Below are positions 12,471 to 45,001 of a DNA stretch of 64,000 nucleotides, one piece after another (the stretch's first letter is position 1; each line of letters opens with the position of its first letter). The notes beneath the pieces are model-generated. The model was not told where the DNA came from and searched no databases. It saw only the letters and a list, made by a program, of their open reading frames with translations. A program made the translations under genes and the position numbers. Source of the DNA: Candidatus Aminicenantaceae bacterium. GTDB taxonomy: Bacteria; Acidobacteriota; Aminicenantia; Aminicenantales; Aminicenantaceae. The DNA lies in the NCBI GenBank assembly GCA_041862375.1, contig JBGVTE010000091.1:18975-82974 (forward strand), given 5' to 3'.

Positions 12471-12512
12471 AATTTATAAAAGTTATGAAAGTTATGAAAG
12501 CCTGACCCCAAT
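12471..12512. repeat. Solo arm of the GGGGTCAGGCTTT-terminated MITE-like repeat, with internal TTATGAAAG duplication
   Basis: The sequence aatttataaaagttatgaaagttatgaaagcctgaccccaat matches the arms of the 42268-42389 palindrome. It ends 1 bp before the -35 at 12514. Confidence 0.5.
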
Positions 12513-12513
12513 G

Positions 12514-12541
12514 TTGACTTGGCGGTTAAGAGTGATACAAT
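12514..12541 (+). promoter_or_regulatory. Sigma-70-like promoter TTGACT-16-TACAAT
   Basis: TTGACT at 12514-12519, a 16-nt spacer, then TACAAT at 12536-12541. The arsA-like ATG is at 12557. Confidence 0.45.
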
Positions 12542-12556
12542 AATTTTAAAGGCCCG

Positions 12557-13717
12557 ATGCGTATCATACTATTTACTGGAAAAGGTGGAGTCGGCAAAAC
12601 AACTCTGGCTGCGGCGACAGCTCTTCTCTCTGCAAAAAAAGGATATAAAACCCTGATTATTTCCACAGATGCAGCTCACAGTTTATCTGACTCATTTGAA
12701 ATCCAGCTCTCCAATACTCCTAAAAAAATCTTCACAAACCTGTACGGCCAAGAGATTAGTGCTCTAGAAGAAATGGAAAAAAAATGGGGGAAAATCCAAA
12801 ACTACCTTACTGAACTTTTTGCCTCTCAAGGAATAAGCTCAATAGAGGCTGAAGAGATGAGTGTTTTCCCCGGTATGGAAGAACTCTTTAGTCTTATGGA
12901 AATTCGCAATTTCAACAGTACTTCAGAATTCGATGTCATCATTGTTGACTGTGCTCCAACCGGTGATACGTTAAGGCTCTTGAGCGCTCCTGAAATAACC
13001 AATTGGTATCTCAAGCACATATTTCCTATCCAAAGGACAGCTGCGAAGGCAGTAAGACCTGTTGCAAGCCGATTGCTCCCGTTTCCTTTCCCTGAAGATC
13101 AGATATTCGAGGAGATGAAAAAATTGTCCACTCAACTGGCAGAAATGAAGGAAATTCTTGAAGATAAAAAGAAATCTTCGATTCGTCTTGTTGTAAATCC
13201 CGAAAAAATGGTCATTAAAGAAGCTCAAAGAGCATTTACCTTTTTTAACCTTTTTGGCTATGCAGTTGATCTAATCATCGTCAACCGCATTATTCCCCAT
13301 GGAGTTAAAGATAGTTATTTCAGCCAGTGGAAGACAATCCAGAAAAATTATCTGCTAATGATCCAAGAAATATTCTCGCCTCTCCCCATATTCTCTTCAA
13401 ATCTCTTTGACCGAGAGGTAATCGGCAGCAATCTACTCCAAAAAATGGCTGAAAATGTCTACGGAAACAAAGACCCGACTCAACTATTCTTCTCACAAAA
13501 ACCTATAACCATAGAAAAAGAAAACAGTGGATTTGTATTATCCTTGAATTTGCCTTTTGTTGAAAAAAAAGACCTGGATTTATATCAAAAGGGAGAAGAG
13601 TTGCTCATCAAAGTGGGAAATTTTAAAAGGAACATCCTTTTGCCGAGAACTCTTCTTCACTATTCTATAAAAGGAGCCAAATTTGAGAATATGAAACTTA
13701 GAATACATTTCAGCTAA
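12557..13717 (+). CDS. ArsA/GET3-family anion-transporting ATPase with C-terminal HSP20-like (ArsA_HSP20) domain
   Basis: P-loop GKGGVGKTT. ArsA-type DCAPTGDT switch motif. The last ~80 aa (ITIEKENSGFVLSLNLPF...KRNILLPR) look like an alpha-crystallin/HSP20-like beta-sandwich. Confidence 0.75.
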   Translation: MRIILFTGKGGVGKTTLAAATALLSAKKGYKTLIISTDAAHSLSDSFEIQLSNTPKKIFTNLYGQEISALEEMEKKWGKIQNYLTELFASQGISSIEAEEMSVFPGMEELFSLMEIRNFNSTSEFDVIIVDCAPTGDTLRLLSAPEITNWYLKHIFPIQRTAAKAVRPVASRLLPFPFPEDQIFEEMKKLSTQLAEMKEILEDKKKSSIRLVVNPEKMVIKEAQRAFTFFNLFGYAVDLIIVNRIIPHGVKDSYFSQWKTIQKNYLLMIQEIFSPLPIFSSNLFDREVIGSNLLQKMAENVYGNKDPTQLFFSQKPITIEKENSGFVLSLNLPFVEKKDLDLYQKGEELLIKVGNFKRNILLPRTLLHYSIKGAKFENMKLRIHFS

Positions 13718-27667: not shown

Positions 27668-30007
27668 TTACTCGTAGCGGATGGAGTCGACCGGGTCGGC
27701 CAGGGCGGTCTTGATGACCTGATAGCTTATTGTGATCAACGCCACAACAAAGGTAAAAGCAACCGTCGCCACAACCACTCCCGCATCCAACTGTGTCCGG
27801 GATACAAACATGTTCAGGAACTTCCTGGCAGTAAAGTAGGCAACGGGAACAGCGATCAGATTGGCCGCCATAATGACCTTAAAGAACTTCCACGATAACA
27901 GGAACACAACTCCAGGCACGGAGGCTCCCAGGACTTTACGGATGCCTATCTCTTTTCTCCTCTGTTCCAAAAGGAGCGAGGCTAGACCAAATAATCCCAG
28001 ACAGGAGATAAACACAGCTAAGAAAGCAAAGCTGTTAAAGATTGTATTCATAATCTTCAAAGGAACATAGAGCATCTCAAACCAATCATCGAGGAATTGG
28101 TACCAGAACGGGAATCCCGGTGATACATCCTTGAAGACCTTCTCAATATAGGTCAGGCTCCCGGGAATATCTTCAGGGCTGATTTTAATAAGAAGGTCGT
28201 AAAACCAGCTGGGCCGAATACCCATAACCATTGGAGAAATATCAAAGATAAGCGGCTTATGGTTGAAATCCTTGACTACACCAATGATTCTTCCTTCTCT
28301 GCCGGCCAGAGCTACCCGCTTCCCGATCGGATTCGTCATTCCCATAAAACGAACTGCCGATTCATTTACCACATAAGCCTCTGAAGCGTCTGTCGTGTAT
28401 TCCTCTGAAAAATCCCGCCCCTGCACGATCTCCAGGCCAAATGTTTCTGCGTAATCATGGTCGACATACAGAAAATTCAATTCCACTTCCTTATCTGTTT
28501 CCATGCCCTCCCACTCGAAATCATTGACATTGAACAAGAAGTGGGGGGGAGCCGAGGCAAAAGTAACATTAAGGATACGCGGGTCTTGCAGCAGCTTGTC
28601 TTTAAAGGTTTTATGGGAGTCTCTTAACTCATCGTTCATCAGAATATGTACGATCTGCTCACGCGAGAAACCGAACTCGGTGTTTCGGATGTATTGCATT
28701 TGTTTATAGGCGACTACAGTCATGATGATCAGCAGCACAGATACAGAAAATTGGCTGACAACCAGAACAGTCCGTAGAGCGGCCCCCTTGCGGCCTCTGC
28801 TGGTATCCCTCTTTAAAACCCTGACAGGCTGAAAAGAGGAGAGAAATAATGCCGGATAACTCCCTGCAACAAAGCCAGTGACAACAGCCGCCACAACAAG
28901 CGAAAGGAAAATGAACATATTTCCAGAACCTAGAAGGGACATCTCTTTGCCTTGAATCCTGTTGAACACCGGAAGGAAAAGATCAACGAGAAAAACTGCC
29001 AGACAGAATGATATCAATGAGAGAAGCACAGATTCTCCCAGGAACTGCTTGATGATATCCGACCTTCTGGCACCGACCACTTTTCGTATCCCTACTTCCA
29101 GAGCACGGATACCGGAGTGGGCCGTTGTGATATTCATAAAGTTGACGCAGGCGATAGCCAGGATCATGACCGCGATCACGGCAAAAATAATAACAAATCT
29201 CTTATCACTACGGCCTCCCTGCATGATGTTCAAGTGGGCCTCTTTTATGGGCTGAAGAGTGACGGTATAGTCATCTTCTGGATGGTATTTCTGGATTGTG
29301 CCGGCGATCTTGCGGTTGATCTCCTCAACAGAAACCCTTTCCTGAAGCTGAACGTAAGCATCGGCCTCGCGCCACCAGGAAGAAAGCCGTTCGCTGTTAA
29401 AAACCTGGAGTGAGGCCATGAAGTCAAACTGAAGGTGCGAATTGTAGGGGACTTTTTCTATGACGCCGGTTACCTCGAGATCTTGTGTGTTGTTCCAGCG
29501 GAGGATTTTTCCCATGGGATCTTCTTCACCAAAATATCTTTGAGCCGCCTCTTTTGTGACTACCACAGAATTCTGATTATTTAAGGCTGTCTTCGGATTC
29601 CCTGTGACAAAATCATAAGAGAACATTGAGAAAAAAGAAGGATCGGTAAAAAAGAACCGCTGTTCATAGAAAGTGATATCGCCGTGCTTGACAGCACTGG
29701 GATAGGCACGGGTCCTGACTCGGGTTACCTCAGCAATTTCAGGATATTCTTCCTTGAGGATTTTAGGCAGAATATAGGGAGTACTGGGCATTCCCAGATC
29801 ACCCGGATCGTCGGCTTTCTTGAGAATGATGCGAAATAGCCGGTTGCTGTTGGTGTGGAACGTATCATAGTTCAGTTCGTCATAAACCCAGAGGAAGATG
29901 AGGATAAAGCAAGCCATCGCCACAGTCAGGCCAGCTATATTGATGAGGGAATAAACTTTGTATCTCCTGATGTTCCTGAAAGCGATCTTGAGGTAGTTTT
30001 TAAACAT
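27668..30007 (-). CDS. FtsX/MacB-type ABC transporter permease (two FtsX domains, no ATPase domain)
   Basis: N-terminal MFKNYLKIAFRNIRRYKVYSLINIAGLTVAMACFILIF TM1. Large periplasmic domains. C-terminal ...DSIRYE. Markedly GC-richer codon usage than flanking genes. Confidence 0.8.
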   Translation of the reverse strand: MFKNYLKIAFRNIRRYKVYSLINIAGLTVAMACFILIFLWVYDELNYDTFHTNSNRLFRIILKKADDPGDLGMPSTPYILPKILKEEYPEIAEVTRVRTRAYPSAVKHGDITFYEQRFFFTDPSFFSMFSYDFVTGNPKTALNNQNSVVVTKEAAQRYFGEEDPMGKILRWNNTQDLEVTGVIEKVPYNSHLQFDFMASLQVFNSERLSSWWREADAYVQLQERVSVEEINRKIAGTIQKYHPEDDYTVTLQPIKEAHLNIMQGGRSDKRFVIIFAVIAVMILAIACVNFMNITTAHSGIRALEVGIRKVVGARRSDIIKQFLGESVLLSLISFCLAVFLVDLFLPVFNRIQGKEMSLLGSGNMFIFLSLVVAAVVTGFVAGSYPALFLSSFQPVRVLKRDTSRGRKGAALRTVLVVSQFSVSVLLIIMTVVAYKQMQYIRNTEFGFSREQIVHILMNDELRDSHKTFKDKLLQDPRILNVTFASAPPHFLFNVNDFEWEGMETDKEVELNFLYVDHDYAETFGLEIVQGRDFSEEYTTDASEAYVVNESAVRFMGMTNPIGKRVALAGREGRIIGVVKDFNHKPLIFDISPMVMGIRPSWFYDLLIKISPEDIPGSLTYIEKVFKDVSPGFPFWYQFLDDWFEMLYVPLKIMNTIFNSFAFLAVFISCLGLFGLASLLLEQRRKEIGIRKVLGASVPGVVFLLSWKFFKVIMAANLIAVPVAYFTARKFLNMFVSRTQLDAGVVVATVAFTFVVALITISYQVIKTALADPVDSIRYE

Positions 30008-30619: not shown

Positions 30620-33022
30620 ATGTTTAAAAATTATTTAAAGATCGCTTTACGAAACCTGTCCAAACAAAAGATCTTTTCAGCTATCAACATACTGGGTTTG
30701 GCTGTGGGCCTGGCCGGAGCCATTCTGACCTTCCTTTTCGTCCAGAATGAACTGTCTTACGACCGGTTTCATGAAAACGAGGAGAACCTGTACCGCCTTC
30801 ACACCTTATGGCACAAGGAAGATGGGAGCATTGAAAGGGCCTGGAAAAGCGTCACTATGCCCATGGGGCCAGTTGTGGAAGAGTATTTTCCAGAAGTCAC
30901 GTACTCCATCCGTGTCTCAAATGATTATGCCACTATTAAGACAGGAGGAAATCTCTATAACGAAAGAATCACTCAAGTGGATAAGCCTTTCTTCAAGGCT
31001 TTTTCATTTCCTCTGATAATGGGCGATCCTTCTTCCGTGTTCTCGCAGGATTACTCCATGGTCCTCACAGAAGACCACGCCCGGAAATATTTCGGAGACG
31101 CCAATCCTATCGGTAAAACCTTAATCCTGATCCACGGACAGGAACAGAGCGAATTTGTGGTGACCGGAGTGGCCGAACAACCTCCTTCAAACTCATCCAT
31201 CTCCTTCGACATCTTGATCGATATAGAAAGCGCGAACAGGCTGAACATAAACGTCAGGTGGCTTGATAACTGGGGCGGCTTCGCATGGCAGACTTATGTG
31301 CTGGTTCAGAGCAGAAGCTCCGTGGACAGCTTGCTGCAGAGATTTCCTGGCTTTATTGACCAGTATTATGCTTCCTTCATCGAGAATTACCGGACGCGGA
31401 GAAATTGGAAAAGTGAAGTATCGCCGGTCTCATTCGGACTCCAGCCCATAACGCGTGTTCACCTTGACCCCCAGGTCAAGGGATCTCTCAATCTGAGCGC
31501 CATATTCATTCTCAGCGGAATAGCCTTCATTGTTCTGTTTATCGCCTGCGTCAATTTTATGAACCTGTCCATTGGCCTGGCTTCAACACGGTCATTAGAG
31601 GTCGGTATGCGCAAGGTCCTGGGCGCAGAGCGCCGGCAGCTCATCCGCCAGTTCTGGGGAGAATTTTTAGTCACAACCGGGATCGCCATGATGGCGGGTC
31701 TCGCCCTGGCTGAGATCATGCTGCCGATATTCAACCGCCTGTCCGGCAAGAGCCTGAGTCTGAGAGAAATATTTCAGCCTGCCAATTTCTTGATCCTGCT
31801 GGCCCTGTTCATCATCGCGGGAATCGCCTCAGGAAGTTACCCGGCTTTGGTCATGTCCAGGTTCCAGCCGGTGGAAATCCTCAGAGGAAAGCTGAGAATC
31901 GGAGGGAAAAATCCCATAACCAGAGTCCTGCTCGTCGTCCAGTTTGCTCTTTCCGTTTTCCTCATCATCGCCACGATCATCATGGGGCGCCAGATCCATT
32001 TCATGCTCACTGCAGATCCCGGCTTCAACAAGGAAGGTATCGTGGCTGTCCAAACCCAGGAGCCGGAGGCCGAGGCCAGCAATGTAGCCCTTAAACTCTT
32101 TAGAGATCGTCTGAGTCAGCAGCCGAATATCGTTTCCATTTCAGGGACAACTGTTCGCTTCGGCGATGTGGCCGCCTATCCCATTGAGAAAGACGGCCGT
32201 GAAATCAATGTCTACCAGAACCGCGTGGATTATGATTTTTTCAAGACCATGGGTATCGAAGTGGTTCAAGGACGCACCTTCTCTCCTGAATTGGCCACTG
32301 ATGTTGATGGTGTGGTCGTAAACGAGAAACTAATCAAAGAGCTGGGGATAGAAGATCCCATAGGCAAACCGCTCAGGGGGTATTACATACCCCTGACGAT
32401 CATCGGTGTGGTCAGGGATTACATCACTGCGGATTTCCGGAACGATATCCTCCCGGCCCTGCTTCACATCAAGCCCGACTGGAGGATTAGAACCATACTG
32501 GTGCGGATATCCCCTCAGAACATCTCCGAAACCATATCGCTGCTAGAAAGAACCTGGGAGGAAATCCAGCCGAATAAATCCTTCCTCTACTCCTTCCTGG
32601 ATGAGTGGATGGAAGCCATGTACAGCGAGGAGAAAAGGTGGGGAGCGATCGTTGGGTATTCCACTGGGCTGGCAGTACTTATCGCCTGTATGGGCATCTT
32701 CGGCCTGACATCCATCACGGTGAACCAAAGGACTAAAGAGATTGGCATCCGAAAAGTCCTGGGCGCGAATGTCCCTCAGATCATCTATACATTAATCAAG
32801 GAATTCATCTTGTTGGTGGGTATCGCCAACATAATCGGCTGGCCTTTAGCCTATCTCGCTATGAGGACTCTGCTCAACAATTATTACTTCCGCATTTCCT
32901 TAGGACCCCAGTATTTCCTCTTGGCTGGAGTCCTATCCTTTTCTGTCGCAGTACTCACAACAGCCTTCCTGGCTGTCCGGGCGGCTGTGGCCAATCCTGT
33001 GGACTCACTCAGGTATGAATGA
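30620..33022 (+). CDS. FtsX/MacB-type ABC transporter permease, paralogue of 27668-30007
   Basis: N-terminal MFKNYLKIALRNLSKQKIFSAINILGLAVG. C-terminal ...DSLRYE. GC-rich like its paralogue. Divergently oriented. Confidence 0.8.
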   Translation: MFKNYLKIALRNLSKQKIFSAINILGLAVGLAGAILTFLFVQNELSYDRFHENEENLYRLHTLWHKEDGSIERAWKSVTMPMGPVVEEYFPEVTYSIRVSNDYATIKTGGNLYNERITQVDKPFFKAFSFPLIMGDPSSVFSQDYSMVLTEDHARKYFGDANPIGKTLILIHGQEQSEFVVTGVAEQPPSNSSISFDILIDIESANRLNINVRWLDNWGGFAWQTYVLVQSRSSVDSLLQRFPGFIDQYYASFIENYRTRRNWKSEVSPVSFGLQPITRVHLDPQVKGSLNLSAIFILSGIAFIVLFIACVNFMNLSIGLASTRSLEVGMRKVLGAERRQLIRQFWGEFLVTTGIAMMAGLALAEIMLPIFNRLSGKSLSLREIFQPANFLILLALFIIAGIASGSYPALVMSRFQPVEILRGKLRIGGKNPITRVLLVVQFALSVFLIIATIIMGRQIHFMLTADPGFNKEGIVAVQTQEPEAEASNVALKLFRDRLSQQPNIVSISGTTVRFGDVAAYPIEKDGREINVYQNRVDYDFFKTMGIEVVQGRTFSPELATDVDGVVVNEKLIKELGIEDPIGKPLRGYYIPLTIIGVVRDYITADFRNDILPALLHIKPDWRIRTILVRISPQNISETISLLERTWEEIQPNKSFLYSFLDEWMEAMYSEEKRWGAIVGYSTGLAVLIACMGIFGLTSITVNQRTKEIGIRKVLGANVPQIIYTLIKEFILLVGIANIIGWPLAYLAMRTLLNNYYFRISLGPQYFLLAGVLSFSVAVLTTAFLAVRAAVANPVDSLRYE

Positions 33023-34541: not shown

Positions 34542-34613
34542 GGGCCTATAGCTCAGCGGTAGAGCCACCGGCTCATAACCGGCAGGTCCCAGGTTCGAAT
34601 CCTGGTAGGCCCA
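34542..34613 (+). tRNA. tRNA with CAT anticodon (elongator tRNA-Met or lysidine tRNA-Ile2)
   Basis: GGGCCTATAGCTCAGCGGTAGAGCCACCGGCTCATAACCGGCAGGTCCCAGGTTCGAATCCTGGTAGGCCCA. Acceptor GGGCCTA/TAGGCCC with G1-C72 paired, so not initiator. Anticodon loop CTCATAA. T-arm CCAGG-TTCGAAT-CCTGG. Confidence 0.85.
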
Positions 34614-39747: not shown

Positions 39748-42162
<2,415 letters not shown>

Positions 42163-42267: not shown

Positions 42268-42389
42268 TTGGGGTCAGGCTTTCATAAGTTTTATAAATTG
42301 AATTTTTTCTAATCTTTCATTGTAACCCTAGCTTTTATTTCTTCCTGGTAAACAATAAATTATAAAAGTTATGAAAGCCTGACCCCAAT
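42268..42389. repeat. ~122-bp palindromic MITE-like element with ~31-bp terminal inverted repeats ending in GGGGTCAGGCTTT / AAAGCCTGACCCC
   Basis: The arm ttggggtcaggctttcataagttttataaatt at 42268-42299 is inverted at 42357-42389 with 1-2 mismatches. Located in the gyrB / DRG-GTPase divergent intergenic region. Its right end is 5 bp from the -35 at 42395. Confidence 0.55.
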
Positions 42390-42394
42390 TACCT

Positions 42395-42423
42395 TTGAAA
42401 ACCAGTCTATGTTCAGCTATAAT
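42395..42423 (+). promoter_or_regulatory. Sigma-70-like promoter TTGAAA-17-TATAAT
   Basis: TTGAAA at 42395-42400, a 17-nt spacer, then TATAAT at 42418-42423. It lies inside the ORF-track start (42409), so the true start is likely the ATG at 42442. Confidence 0.45.
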
Positions 42424-42441
42424 TTTTACCAAGAGATAAAA

Positions 42442-43434
42442 ATGCCAGCAAATTTGCCACCTCAGTACTTTGAGACAGAGAAAAAATTAAAAGTAGCAAA
42501 AACCCCGCAGGAAAAGATTAGAATTCTAGAAGAACTACTCTCCATAGTTCCCAAACACAAAGGCACAGAAAAGCTACAAGCCTTGCTAAAAACGAAAATT
42601 GCAAAACTTAAATCTACAGCTCAAAAAAAACCCTCTATAGCCAGGCACAGTTCTCTACACCGTGTGGAGAGATCTGGAGCAGGTCAAATAATCTTAATTG
42701 GGCCACCGAATAGTGGCAAATCCATGTTGGTTAAATCCCTGACAAATGCAACCCCTGAAATCGGTGAATATCCCTTCACAACTCGCTTGCCATATCCTGC
42801 CATGATGGAGTATGAAAACATCAAGATTCAACTCGTCGATACTCCCCCTGTTACGCCAGAATACATGGAGAGCTGGCTTCTAGAGATGATAAAAGAATCC
42901 GATGGAATCTTGATTCTTCTGGATTTGTCTGATTCCAGCCCTATAAACACTTTAAAAGTCCTTCTTTCTGGGCTTAAAGAAAAGAAAATAGAACTAATCT
43001 CAGAAAAAGAAAAAACTATAGAGACAGAAGTAAGATTTTTTCCAAAAAGAGCGCTGGTTGTCGCTAATAAAAAAGATGTGCTTCTTAATGATAATGACTT
43101 TACAACCCTGAAAGGATTCTGCAAAGGAAAATTCAACCTCATCTCTCTATCTGCCCTTCATAGAGATGGTCTTGATGAACTTAGAAAGCATATTTTTCTC
43201 ATGCTTGATGTCATTCGCGTGTATAGTAAAATCCCGGGGAAAAAAGCAGACCTGAATGCTCCTTATACCCTGAAGAGAGGAAGCTCAGTACTCGATATGG
43301 CTAGAGAAGTCCACAAGGATTTTACCCAAAAACTAAAATACGCAAGGATCTGGAGTAAGAATAAATACCAAGGCCAGATGGTCAACCGAGACCACATCCT
43401 CGAAGACGAAGATATTCTCGAACTTCATATATAA
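42442..43434 (+). CDS. DRG/Rbg-type (archaeal/eukaryotic-like) GTPase with C-terminal TGS domain
   Basis: N-terminal LQALLKTKIAKLKS resembles the DRG helix YHLGLLKAKLAKLR. G1 is GPPNSGKSMLVKSLTNA. The block EIGEYPFTTRLPYPAMMEYENIKIQLVDTPP matches DRG [31 protein letters not shown]. C-terminal TGS-like IRVYSKIPG...ARIWSKNKYQGQMVNRDHILEDEDILEL. Confidence 0.55.
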   Translation: MPANLPPQYFETEKKLKVAKTPQEKIRILEELLSIVPKHKGTEKLQALLKTKIAKLKSTAQKKPSIARHSSLHRVERSGAGQIILIGPPNSGKSMLVKSLTNATPEIGEYPFTTRLPYPAMMEYENIKIQLVDTPPVTPEYMESWLLEMIKESDGILILLDLSDSSPINTLKVLLSGLKEKKIELISEKEKTIETEVRFFPKRALVVANKKDVLLNDNDFTTLKGFCKGKFNLISLSALHRDGLDELRKHIFLMLDVIRVYSKIPGKKADLNAPYTLKRGSSVLDMAREVHKDFTQKLKYARIWSKNKYQGQMVNRDHILEDEDILELHI

Positions 43435-43570: not shown

Positions 43571-44743
43571 CTAATGTTTACTGTTTTTTTCTATCCTGTG
43601 GCTTACCACGACCCCTCGCTCTTGAAGCGCGTTGACGATAGGTTGATACAATTCACCGTGAAAAACATTTTCAGGGAAAAGTACTCCCCTTTGAGTTATC
43701 TTATCAGAAGCAATCATTTGAGCAGCAATAGATGCTGGAAAGCTTGTCGTTTTAGCCATTGAAGTATACTTCATTTTTGGATCATAGAAATCAATTATTT
43801 CAAAAATGTGCGTCGTGGGCTCACCTGATTTCTTTCCTGAAACAACTACTCTCATTAAAGTCACATCACCCTCTTTTCCCAATTTCCACTTAGTCTCTAA
43901 AATAGCTTTAAGGAATTCTCTCGGAATGACTTTCTTGTTAAATAGAGAAAGAGGTTCCCTAGAGAAAAAACCAAATTCTTTTATCATTTTAATTGCCTGA
44001 GCATGCCCAGGATAGCGAACAGTTTTTTCAGCCAACTTATCTCTAATTCTGCCTTGTAATGTATAGATGAGAGAAGAAAGTCCATCTGTATAAAAGCACT
44101 CCATTCTTGAAAAAGGAGGAGGAAATTCAACAGGTTCAATACCCGATAAGGCTTCTACTTCTTTTATCTTACCTTTTTCGAGGATAATAGCCTTTCTCTC
44201 ATAAAAATCTAAAAGGCTTTCAGCAGCATATACAATACTGTACTTTAATGGAGGCTGAGGATGGAGCGGGTTTCCTCCGACATAAATCATTGCTTTCTCT
44301 GTATCATCAAGAAGATATACTCCTCTCCCGACACAGATATTATCAATTCCAGGAGCCAAGCCGCAGCCTGGTATAATAGTTACACCCTTCCTCTTTGCCT
44401 CTTCATCGTAAGAGAGCCGTTCTAATGGGCCCTCTCCCACAACATCCACCAGGTTGACTCCATGGAGAATCGATGCCTCCATAGCTAAAAAGCTGTGTTT
44501 GTGGAGAAGGGCAGATATAGCAACATCTTGGCCTTTAAAAAGGTCTTCCCTCTGGTTTTTATCCTCAACATCTCTCTGAAGAGTGATGAGCCTGTCGCTT
44601 GGTATGAAATTTCGAGCCTTCTTAAGTCTCTCGAAACTGATGTCAGCCAGAGTTACTATGTTCTGTTCATTGCTCAAAATAAGGTCTTTAGCTAAGACGA
44701 CTCCCATCTTTCCTGCTCCAAGCACCAGGAACTTCGGCATCAT
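43571..44743 (-). CDS. Saccharopine dehydrogenase-family NAD(P)-binding oxidoreductase
   Basis: Rossmann GAGKMG N-terminus, Sacchrp_dh-like length and C-domain. The specific substrate (lysine or carboxynorspermidine type) is not determinable. Confidence 0.55.
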   Translation of the reverse strand: MMPKFLVLGAGKMGVVLAKDLILSNEQNIVTLADISFERLKKARNFIPSDRLITLQRDVEDKNQREDLFKGQDVAISALLHKHSFLAMEASILHGVNLVDVVGEGPLERLSYDEEAKRKGVTIIPGCGLAPGIDNICVGRGVYLLDDTEKAMIYVGGNPLHPQPPLKYSIVYAAESLLDFYERKAIILEKGKIKEVEALSGIEPVEFPPPFSRMECFYTDGLSSLIYTLQGRIRDKLAEKTVRYPGHAQAIKMIKEFGFFSREPLSLFNKKVIPREFLKAILETKWKLGKEGDVTLMRVVVSGKKSGEPTTHIFEIIDFYDPKMKYTSMAKTTSFPASIAAQMIASDKITQRGVLFPENVFHGELYQPIVNALQERGVVVSHRIEKNSKH

Positions 44744-44749
44744 TTTCTC

Positions 44750-45001
44750 CTAAATAACTATTCCCATAAGGGTATATAAAACAAATGTTACTCCCACTAC
44801 TGCCAGAGAATAGGGAATCTGAGTCCTGACATGGTCCATATGATCGCAAGCACTTCCCAACGAGGAGAGGACAGTAGTATCAGAGAGAGGTGAACAGTGA
44901 TCACCGAAAACACCCCCTCCGGCTACAGCTGCTATAGCGGCAAAGACCAGGAGCGAGGGCTCTCCTCTGAAAAATCCAGAAATTGTATTACAAGAATTCA
45001 A
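44750..45001 (-). pseudogene. C-terminal remnant (83 aa) of an NhaC-family Na+/H+ antiporter
   Basis: GDHCSPLSDTTVLSSLGSACDHMDHVRTQIPYSLAV is the conserved NhaC C-terminal block. There is no upstream coding continuation, only ~118 bp before the next gene. Confidence 0.55.

Follow-up and report, generated by a model that had tools for sequence, protein, structure and literature searches.

Do bacteria encode a true DRG (developmentally regulated GTP-binding protein)? A review of the DRGs records homologues in Archaea 'though not in bacteria' (PMC8629797). Likewise, Suwastika et al. describe Drg and Nog1 as 'not in eubacteria' (PMC4263083), and in preprints it is Obg that is called 'the bacterial Drg ortholog' (10.1101/2024.04.20.590341, 10.64898/2026.05.13.724932). 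According to a table published in 2013, every bacterial group sampled there has COG1163 (PMC3685469). Here, the question is raised by one gene in a 64,000-nucleotide stretch of DNA from Candidatus Aminicenantaceae bacterium (GenBank assembly GCA_041862375.1, contig JBGVTE010000091.1, positions 18,975 to 82,974). We refer to the whole stretch as the window and count coordinates from its first nucleotide. A first-pass annotation, made from the sequence alone, had read the gene product as a DRG/Rbg-type GTPase. We conclude that the protein is a member of a large bacterial DRG/Rbg branch within the Obg class of TRAFAC GTPases. Hence, the annotation was right to place a DRG-type protein in a bacterium; its account of the architecture and rarity of the protein did not survive. 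In literature searches on bacterial DRG, we found no description of a bacterial DRG-clade family. The sequences themselves are already in databases, and JGI names family members 'ribosome-interacting GTPase 1'. What is new is the recognition of the family and its anatomy. The gene is as follows.

42442..43434 including the stop codon, plus strand: gene for a DRG-clade GTPase of a bacterial subfamily lacking the S5D2L domain, 330 amino acids (open reading frame, homologues, and Rbg2 and Rbg1 as best PDB matches).

The intact open reading frame spans 42409..43434 on the plus strand. The true start is the ATG at 42442, as first annotated. Briefly, the family N-terminus is MPANL, which begins 289 of about 310 homologues of 300–335 amino acids. 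Furthermore, the NCBI model of an identical protein (P0001, 100% identity over 330 amino acids) has the same length and is named 'MAG: GTPase [Candidatus Aminicenantaceae bacterium]'. The longer start at 42409 was rejected because homologues begin MPANL and a −10 box would fall within the extension.

Homology to the DRG/Rbg clade is firmly established by sequence comparison and structure prediction. In a search of PDB sequences, the single protein matched Rbg2 (E = 1.3e-25) and Rbg1 (4.6e-23) through its N-terminus plus the G1–G3 region, and through the TGS domain. Obg proteins scored about 1e-6. A family profile, built from 71 sequences, matched the yeast proteins Rbg2 (3.6e-58) and Rbg1 (3.6e-55) end to end. 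Matches to MTG2/Obg (8e-25), Nog1 (8e-22) and YchF (about 1e-11, local) were weaker and covered the G domain only; for Obg, the E-value is about 33 orders of magnitude weaker than for Rbg. An AlphaFold2 model built on a 142-sequence alignment had a predicted local distance difference test score (pLDDT) of 88.6 and a predicted template modelling score (pTM) of 0.73. When the PDB was searched with this model using Foldseek, the top three matches were Rbg1 (E = 6e-20, TM 0.60). Nog1 and HflX reached only about 1e-11. Hence, eukaryotic DRG1/Rbg1 and DRG2/Rbg2 (PDB 4a9a, 7rr5, 7nrc) are the best sequence and fold matches among solved structures, with homologous helix-turn-helix (HTH), G and TGS domains. 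Identity to these eukaryotic proteins is about 23% by structural alignment. The nearest non-bacterial relatives are archaeal DRGs, with 35–40% identity over the full length. These include the Pyrococcus and Thermococcus proteins named 'developmentally regulated GTP-binding protein / RBG1-like' (387–388 amino acids) and proteins of Desulfurococcales and Methanomethylicota. The Thermococcus DRG matches Rbg2 at 3.9e-65 over its full length.

Could the protein instead be a divergent classical bacterial GTPase of the Obg/CgtA, YchF, Era, EngA or HflX families? Its G domain matches NCBIfam models of those families with E-values from 1e-16 to 1e-7. The G1 motif (GxPNxGKS) and the distance from G3 to G4 (76 residues, compared with 70 in ObgE) also look bacterial. 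However, these matches are confined to the G domain and none of the Obg, Era, EngA, YchF or HflX models came near its cutoff. Obg was the best: TIGR02729 scored 59 bits against a cutoff of 280, over profile positions 159–327, which is the G domain. For YchF, TIGR00092 scored 17.4 bits against a cutoff of 279, and PF06071 gave E = 0.23. Obg/CgtA proteins have an Obg-class G domain too. Unlike the window protein, they carry a Gly-rich Obg-fold N-terminal domain, in some cases a C-terminal OCT domain, and neither HTH nor TGS; their G3 is a canonical DxPG followed by a Gly-rich switch II. YchF/OLA1 proteins resemble the window protein in having an Obg-class G domain and then a C-terminal TGS-like domain. 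They differ by a helical, coiled-coil insertion, an ATP-preferring NxxE at G4 and the lack of an N-terminal HTH. By contrast, the N-terminal and TGS domains of the window protein align specifically to DRG, and the Foldseek match agrees. We consider membership of a classical family extremely improbable. The reciprocal profile comparison of DRG, Obg and YchF proposed in the first-pass annotation thus puts the protein with DRG/Rbg, and the architecture of Obg, Era, EngA or YchF is lacking, as that annotation had stated.

The protein comprises three domains.

42442..42624, plus strand: N-terminal three-helix domain, residues 1–61 (AlphaFold2 helices 7–18, 22–35 and 40–61, pLDDT 74–89; Rbg1/2 alignment).
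42682..43206, plus strand: G domain, approximately residues 81–255 (PF01926, E = 2e-16; motif statistics).
43210..43431, plus strand: TGS domain, residues 257–330, with the family motif RVYxKxPG (PF02824, E = 3e-12, residues 258–328).
Motifs of the G domain: G1, G87PPNSGKS94; G2, Y110PFTT114; G3, D133TPP136; G4, N209KKD212; G5, S237A.

The first N-terminal helix (7–18), with its MPANLxPxY sequence, is specific to prokaryotes. The second and third form the DRG HTH and are joined by an invariant loop, P37-K-H39-K40-G-T42, which has the K-x-K-[AG]-T pattern of DRGs. Residues 21–80 align to the N-terminus of Rbg1/2 (Rbg residues 3–60), so that PKHKGT lies opposite QKNKAT and 'llktkiaklks' opposite 'llkgklaryrq'. 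The DRG-type N-terminal helix noted in the first reading is therefore real. In two family alignments N4, H39 and K40 are invariant. K40 aligns with K22 of eukaryotic DRG1/Rbg1, which is hydroxylated. The Pfam MMR_HSR1 match within the G domain covers residues 82–183. The TGS domain, also recognised at the outset, aligns to the TGS of Rbg1/2 and to the human DRG1 TGS structure 2eki, with an AlphaFold2 pLDDT of 93–97.

One DRG domain is missing. The S5D2L profile (PF16897) gave only E = 0.03 and 14.7 bits, against a cutoff of 35.2, and aligned through its C-terminal half alone. Six longer matches (383–392 amino acids) have about 50 extra residues at query position 191, and here PF16897 scores above its cutoff. 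All six are archaeal DRGs, from Thermococcus/Pyrococcus, Desulfurococcales and Methanomethylicota. Hence, PF16897 is above cutoff in the archaeal long forms and not in the short forms. In the window protein, a loop (187–199) stands in place of S5D2L, flanked by AlphaFold2 strands 183–186 and 200–209. From the model, these strands would correspond to the small sheet of two strands by which S5D2L is tethered in Rbg1 (PMC3510508). Because the insertion is missing, the distance between G3 and G4 is short, and the 'DRG-like spacing' first ascribed to the G domain was mistaken.

Window protein: 76 residues from G3 to G4.
Bacterial family, median (n = 305): 75 residues.
Archaeal DRGs: 128–133 residues.
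Yeast Rbg1 and Rbg2: 132 and 134 residues, respectively.
E. coli ObgE: 70 residues.

The archaeal DRGs and the window protein have in common the MPANL extension, the PKHKGT loop, the G1 Asn, G2, G4 and a TGS domain with RVYTKxPG. The archaeal proteins differ by an S5D2L core of about 50–55 amino acids. Because the long archaeal forms share MPANL and PKHKGT but carry the extra S5D2L, the window protein is, by alignment, an archaeal-type DRG without S5D2L. A minority of family representatives in the metagenome library (P0137, P0172, P0210 and P0225; 356–361 amino acids) have a 15–25-residue acidic or low-complexity insertion at query position 191. This gives no PF16897 match.

The G3 motif is also altered, at a glycine of the catalytic site that is normally invariant. 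It reads D133-T-P-P136 and not DxxG. Among 355 bacterial-type members, G3 is DxxP in 324, DxxA in 17, DxxS in eight and ExxA in three; in the remaining three no motif was found, and none of the 355 has Gly. In addition, a five-residue deletion removes the Gly-rich motif of Obg-class switch II (GAxxGxGxG). G3 and switch II form a graded series across the related proteins.

ObgE: DIPG-LIEGAAEGAGLG
Yeast Rbg1/2: DLPG-IIDGAKDGRGRG
Thermococcales DRG: EVPG-LVEGAALGKGMG
Other archaeal DRGs: E[VA]PA
Desulfurococcales DRG: DTPP, without the Gly-rich motif, S5D2L present
Bacterial family: D[TLM]PP-xxxExxE, with the five-residue deletion and then a conserved Trp

Eukaryotic DRG1 and DRG2 thus differ from the window protein by S5D2L, DLPG and GAxxGRGRG; they also have Ser in place of the G1 Asn and lack the first N-terminal helix. 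Thermococcales DRGs differ in keeping the G3 glycine and GAxxGKGxG. Their EVPG has Glu replacing the G3 Asp. Some TACK-type archaeal DRGs are already like the window protein, with DTPP or ExPA at G3 and no Gly-rich switch II. The G3 Gly is lost in P0238, P0520 and P0524 (Desulfurococcales), P0255 (Methanomethylicota), P0261 and P0496. All still carry S5D2L and some are without the Gly-rich switch II. In the DRG literature examined, we found no mention of G3 variation within archaeal DRGs, nor did we find a description of a DxxP G3 motif in the literature. A G3 Gly-to-Pro variant of archaeal HflX (G235P) has been crystallised (PDB 3kxk) and was among the Foldseek matches.

The remainder of the nucleotide pocket is conserved. 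The P-loop Asn (N90, in G1 GxPNxGKS) occurs in 354 of 356 members and the G2 Thr (T114) is invariant. A regular expression for the [N/T]KxD form of G4 matched about 84% of members, and K210 and D212 are at least 90% conserved in the alignments. Because G1, the G2 Thr and G4 are kept, guanine-nucleotide binding is very probably retained. G3 is followed by V, I or L. Hence, the protein has both marks of the cation-dependent TEES/HAS GTPases: the P-loop Asn, and a hydrophobic residue after G3 where the catalytic Gln would otherwise stand. In this mechanistic class, the two go with K+ dependence. Since proline lacks an N-H, the G3 backbone amide cannot make the canonical contact to the γ-phosphate here. 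Related cation-dependent GTPases with the hydrophobic substitution use two backbone amides, at the G2 Thr and the G3 Gly, to align the attacking water (PMC3153494).

How widespread is the family? An exhaustive search of 1.84 billion cluster representatives (at 50% identity) gave 524 matches with E ≤ 1e-30, and almost every one of the top 150 has a length of about 330 amino acids. As judged from these databases, the bacterial family has thousands of distinct sequences. In the closest 120 clusters (63–100% identity), all named members are Aminicenantes. A profile search recovered members with 42–57% identity from Acidobacteria/Terriglobia, KSB1, Tectomicrobia, Thermodesulfobacteriota, Armatimonadota and Zixibacteria. 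We also scanned one genome per GTDB species for the motif PKHKGT[ED][KH]. This gave at least 600 matches, which is not a count of bacteria since the motif also occurs in archaeal DRGs. The best 80 of these matches are all from metagenome-assembled genomes (MAGs), and 79 are labelled bacterial. Their labels add Dehalococcoidia, Anaerolineae, several Desulfobacterota orders, Nitrospinae, Aerophobetes, Poribacteria, Latescibacterota, NC10/Methylomirabilota, Binatia, Planctomycetota and others. Together, the profile search and the best 80 genome matches yield labelled members from more than 12 bacterial phyla. The sporadic occurrence in bacteria that had been supposed is thus not tenable. A search of cluster names for a cultured host turned up MAGs only.

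Some MAG labels are unreliable. Four contigs labelled 'uncultured Eubacteriales' (L001, L002, L004 and L011) share gyrB/gyrA synteny and 54–70% identity with the Aminicenantes window. On a contig labelled 'Candidatus Iainarchaeum archaeon' (L056, JAGHAR010000032.1), the GTPase is of the bacterial short form and has UvrC and a tyrosine recombinase as neighbours, just as in 16 Dehalococcoidia loci. These five contigs are probable taxonomic mislabels in public MAGs.

The gene is a resident of the chromosome and not a recent import. The upstream neighbour is gyrB (39748-42135, minus strand), divergent from the GTPase gene. Synteny with gyrB/gyrA is kept in 8–9 Aminicenantes loci, at 54–70% protein identity, and the composition of the gene (GC 0.396; GC at third codon positions, GC3, 0.375) equals that of gyrB (GC 0.393, GC3 0.381). 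These two observations argue for residence, and the lateral acquisition in this lineage that had first been proposed is not borne out as a recent event. Downstream is a saccharopine-dehydrogenase-family gene (43571-44743, minus strand), convergent with the GTPase gene. Because its neighbours are divergent and convergent, the GTPase gene looks monocistronic. Across 72 loci, the commonest neighbours were UvrC (17 loci, Dehalococcoidia) and GyrB/GyrA (the Aminicenantes loci). In a survey of 80 loci for a conserved partner or operon, we found only such lineage-specific housekeeping synteny, with no conserved neighbour and no partner resembling a DRG family regulatory protein (DFRP; Tma46 or Gir2 type) adjacent to the GTPase. 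In the window, phmmer detected no other Obg-class GTPase.

What might the protein do? Eukaryotic DRGs have an obligate DFRP partner, Tma46 or Gir2. For archaeal DRGs, the matter of a DFRP partner is called open in a review (PMC8629797). Cryo-electron microscopy of Rbg2–Gir2 (PMC8040806) and Rbg1–Tma46 (10.1101/2020.07.06.190082) on the 80S ribosome places the G domain and HTH on the large subunit, against the sarcin-ricin loop, H89 and the stalk base (H43/H44). In the same structures, the TGS domain reaches the small subunit at h5/h15, and the A-site tRNA is the only contact of S5D2L (PMC8040806, 10.1101/2020.07.06.190082). K22 of DRG1, the lysine hydroxylated by JMJD7, is close to the A-site tRNA (PMC9001643). 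Deletion analysis of Rbg1 found HTH and TGS to be essential (PMC3510508). Rbg1 without S5D2L is stable and keeps its GTPase activity and polysome association; complementation is seen at 30 °C and fails at 37 °C (PMC3510508). This engineered protein has the same composition as the window protein (HTH, G and TGS), folds, hydrolyses GTP and functions at 30 °C. It differs in having a canonical G3 and switch II, and in being Tma46-dependent and temperature-sensitive. By sequence, the bacterial protein is a natural version of the Rbg functional core, in which the rRNA-docking modules are kept and the tRNA-contacting module is absent.

By analogy with these complexes, the protein is most likely a guanine-nucleotide-dependent regulator that binds the factor site of the ribosome, with non-canonical GTP sensing or hydrolysis. 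Because the rRNA elements used for docking are universal, and the HTH, G and TGS modules are kept, the protein would most probably act as a monomer that binds the 70S ribosome at its translation-factor site, depending on guanine nucleotide. It would do so without an S5D2L–tRNA contact and without a DFRP partner. Since the G3 proline has no N-H to contact the γ-phosphate or align water, GTP would be sensed via switch I only, and intrinsic hydrolysis would be slow or dependent on an external activator. Hence, we picture a regulator of paused or idle ribosomes that is slow and stays bound to the ribosome for long, and not a fast-cycling factor. Taken as a whole, a bacterial DRG branch with this ribosomal mechanism is the best explanation of the data, and we judge it moderately probable.

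Several points weigh against this explanation. The case for ribosome binding is carried over from eukaryotic complexes, where the DFRP partner makes a strong contribution to recruitment (PMC3510508). Across the 72 loci, we found no conserved neighbour related to translation. The effect of replacing the G3 Gly by Pro is argued from mechanism. Moreover, the loss of the G3 Gly and switch II is drastic, and the protein might not hydrolyse GTP or might have a different role. The last point leads to another possibility: that the family are pseudo-GTPases, either nucleotide-binding but catalytically dead scaffolds, or proteins whose function is unrelated to the ribosome. The absence of a G3 Gly from all 355 members and the remodelled switch II suit this idea, as does the missing translation-linked gene neighbourhood; for this GTPase class, a part in aligning the attacking water has been attributed to the G3 Gly amide (PMC3153494). 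However, G1 with its Asn, the G2 Thr and G4 are strongly conserved, which argues that nucleotide state still matters. Furthermore, some of the positions best conserved in the family lie in the ribosome-docking modules, the HTH with K40 and the TGS domain. A pseudo-GTPase is unlikely on this balance, and we retain the proposed ribosomal regulator.

A separate matter is where the bacterial branch came from. To include archaeal DRGs, we built a neighbour-joining tree from 328 columns (Kimura distances, 200 bootstraps, ObgE as outgroup). The sample was 38 bacterial, 15 archaeal and 2 yeast sequences; it is biased, since the archaeal ones were picked for their similarity to the query family. The bacterial sequences formed one clade (bootstrap 52%) with a star-like interior. 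This clade lay beside a Desulfurococcales/Methanomethylicota group (28%), and the yeast proteins fell outside bacteria plus archaea (76%). The phylogeny that the first-pass annotation called for thus recovers a single bacterial clade, with weak support for the clade and for its sister relation. A single ancient origin of the bacterial branch is likely. It may have been a transfer from archaea, or descent from a common ancestor with many losses. That this Aminicenantes lineage recently acquired a canonical DRG from an archaeon is very improbable. The closest non-bacterial relatives are indeed archaeal DRGs, in the tree the bacterial clade is placed among those archaeal sequences that were sampled, and a repeat element (below) adjoins the gene. 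However, the protein is not canonical, since it lacks S5D2L and has DxPP at G3. Members labelled from the many phyla above have this same short form, the Aminicenantes synteny and the matching GC and GC3 speak for residence, the best archaeal identity is only about 40%, and the repeat is absent from related loci. A much older event is more credible. In this scenario, a TACK-type DRG already without the G3 Gly passed once from archaea to bacteria; S5D2L was lost later, and the gene then spread both vertically and between bacteria. The bacterial clade next to Desulfurococcales and Methanomethylicota DRGs agrees with this, and those archaeal proteins share DTPP or ExPA and the missing Gly-rich switch II while S5D2L is still present. 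On sequence grounds, this shared loss points the same way as the tree. Also in favour, the family is unreported from model bacteria and reviews call DRG absent from bacteria (PMC8629797, PMC4263083). Against it stand the weak sister relation, the archaeal sample chosen by similarity to the bacterial family, the star-like interior of the bacterial clade, and the alternative of descent from the last universal common ancestor with many losses. The case for one ancient transfer is evenly balanced. It concerns origin only and is compatible with the proposed ribosomal mechanism. Our own, bolder suggestion is that this is a true bacterial DRG lineage, ancient and possibly older than the split of archaea and bacteria, living mainly in uncultured phyla. 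Its members would be monomeric binders of the ribosomal factor site that need no DFRP, no S5D2L–tRNA contact and no switch-II sensor of the γ-phosphate. We offer this complete picture tentatively, as a possibility that is more doubtful than not.

Upstream of the gene are two further elements.

42395-42423, plus strand: predicted promoter-like site, TTGAAA-17-TATAAT (consensus scan, 11 of 12 sigma70-type consensus positions).
42268-42388, no strand assigned: inverted-repeat element of 121 bp between gyrB and the GTPase gene, a hairpin resembling a miniature inverted-repeat transposable element (MITE) (repeat and fold analysis).

The promoter-like site is the best sigma70-like site in the region. 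It lies 19 nt upstream of ATG 42442 and overlaps the first codons of the longer open reading frame. A purine-rich AAGAGA lies 6 nt ahead of the ATG. The arms of the inverted repeat are 32 nt long (42268-42299 and 42357-42388), 94% complementary and separated by a 57-nt spacer. The RNA fold has an energy of −45.7 kcal/mol (z = −7.8). Rfam matches to plant microRNA families at this hairpin were far below gathering scores and were rejected as hairpin artefacts. As first noted, the promoter abuts the MITE-like repeat; the arm ends 7 nt before the −35 hexamer. A 20-mer of the arm, TTGGGGTCAGGCTTTCATAA, has three exact copies in the window where none are expected. We did not find the inverted-repeat element in 81 related loci. 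A solo copy of the arm (12492-12511, in the region 12480-12514) is directly 5′ of a promoter-like TTGACT...TACAAT. Downstream of it is an open reading frame (12557-13717) with a GKGGVGKT Walker A motif at the N-terminus, which we read as ArsA/GET3-like from its sequence. Because it abuts a −35 hexamer at both places, the arm could be a candidate regulator-binding site as well as a MITE-like repeat.

Elsewhere in the window, an open reading frame for 83 amino acids (44750-45001, minus strand) matches only positions 242–303 of the 303 in PF03553 (Na+/H+ antiporter; E = 2.6e-16). It lies between Fe-ADH and saccharopine dehydrogenase genes and looks like the remnant of a truncated antiporter gene. 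Two divergent, paralogous ABC permeases of the MacB_PCD/FtsX type (27668-30007, minus strand, and 30620-33022, plus strand; 779 and 800 amino acids) occupy a block of higher GC (0.46 compared with 0.40). The long-range inverted repeats I1 and I5 are explained by this pair. The block is bracketed by the two copies of a 66-nt direct repeat (27431 and 34429; 88% identity), and there is a tRNA-Met gene at 34542-34613.

The bacterial family is clearly nearer to DRG than Obg is, which changes the orthology argument. It provides a natural minimal DRG (HTH, G and TGS, with neither S5D2L nor DFRP) for probing the conserved core on the ribosome. Family-wide replacement of the G3 Gly is unusual for a TRAFAC GTPase, given that the rest of the nucleotide pocket is kept. 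The family offers a test of how much of its switch II a GTPase associated with the ribosome requires. If the branch is indeed an ancient bacterial DRG lineage, it would represent either a translational GTPase of a mechanistically new kind or else a pseudo-GTPase that is GTP-locked. In bacteria, Obg would then be a paralogue, and not the orthologue, of DRG.

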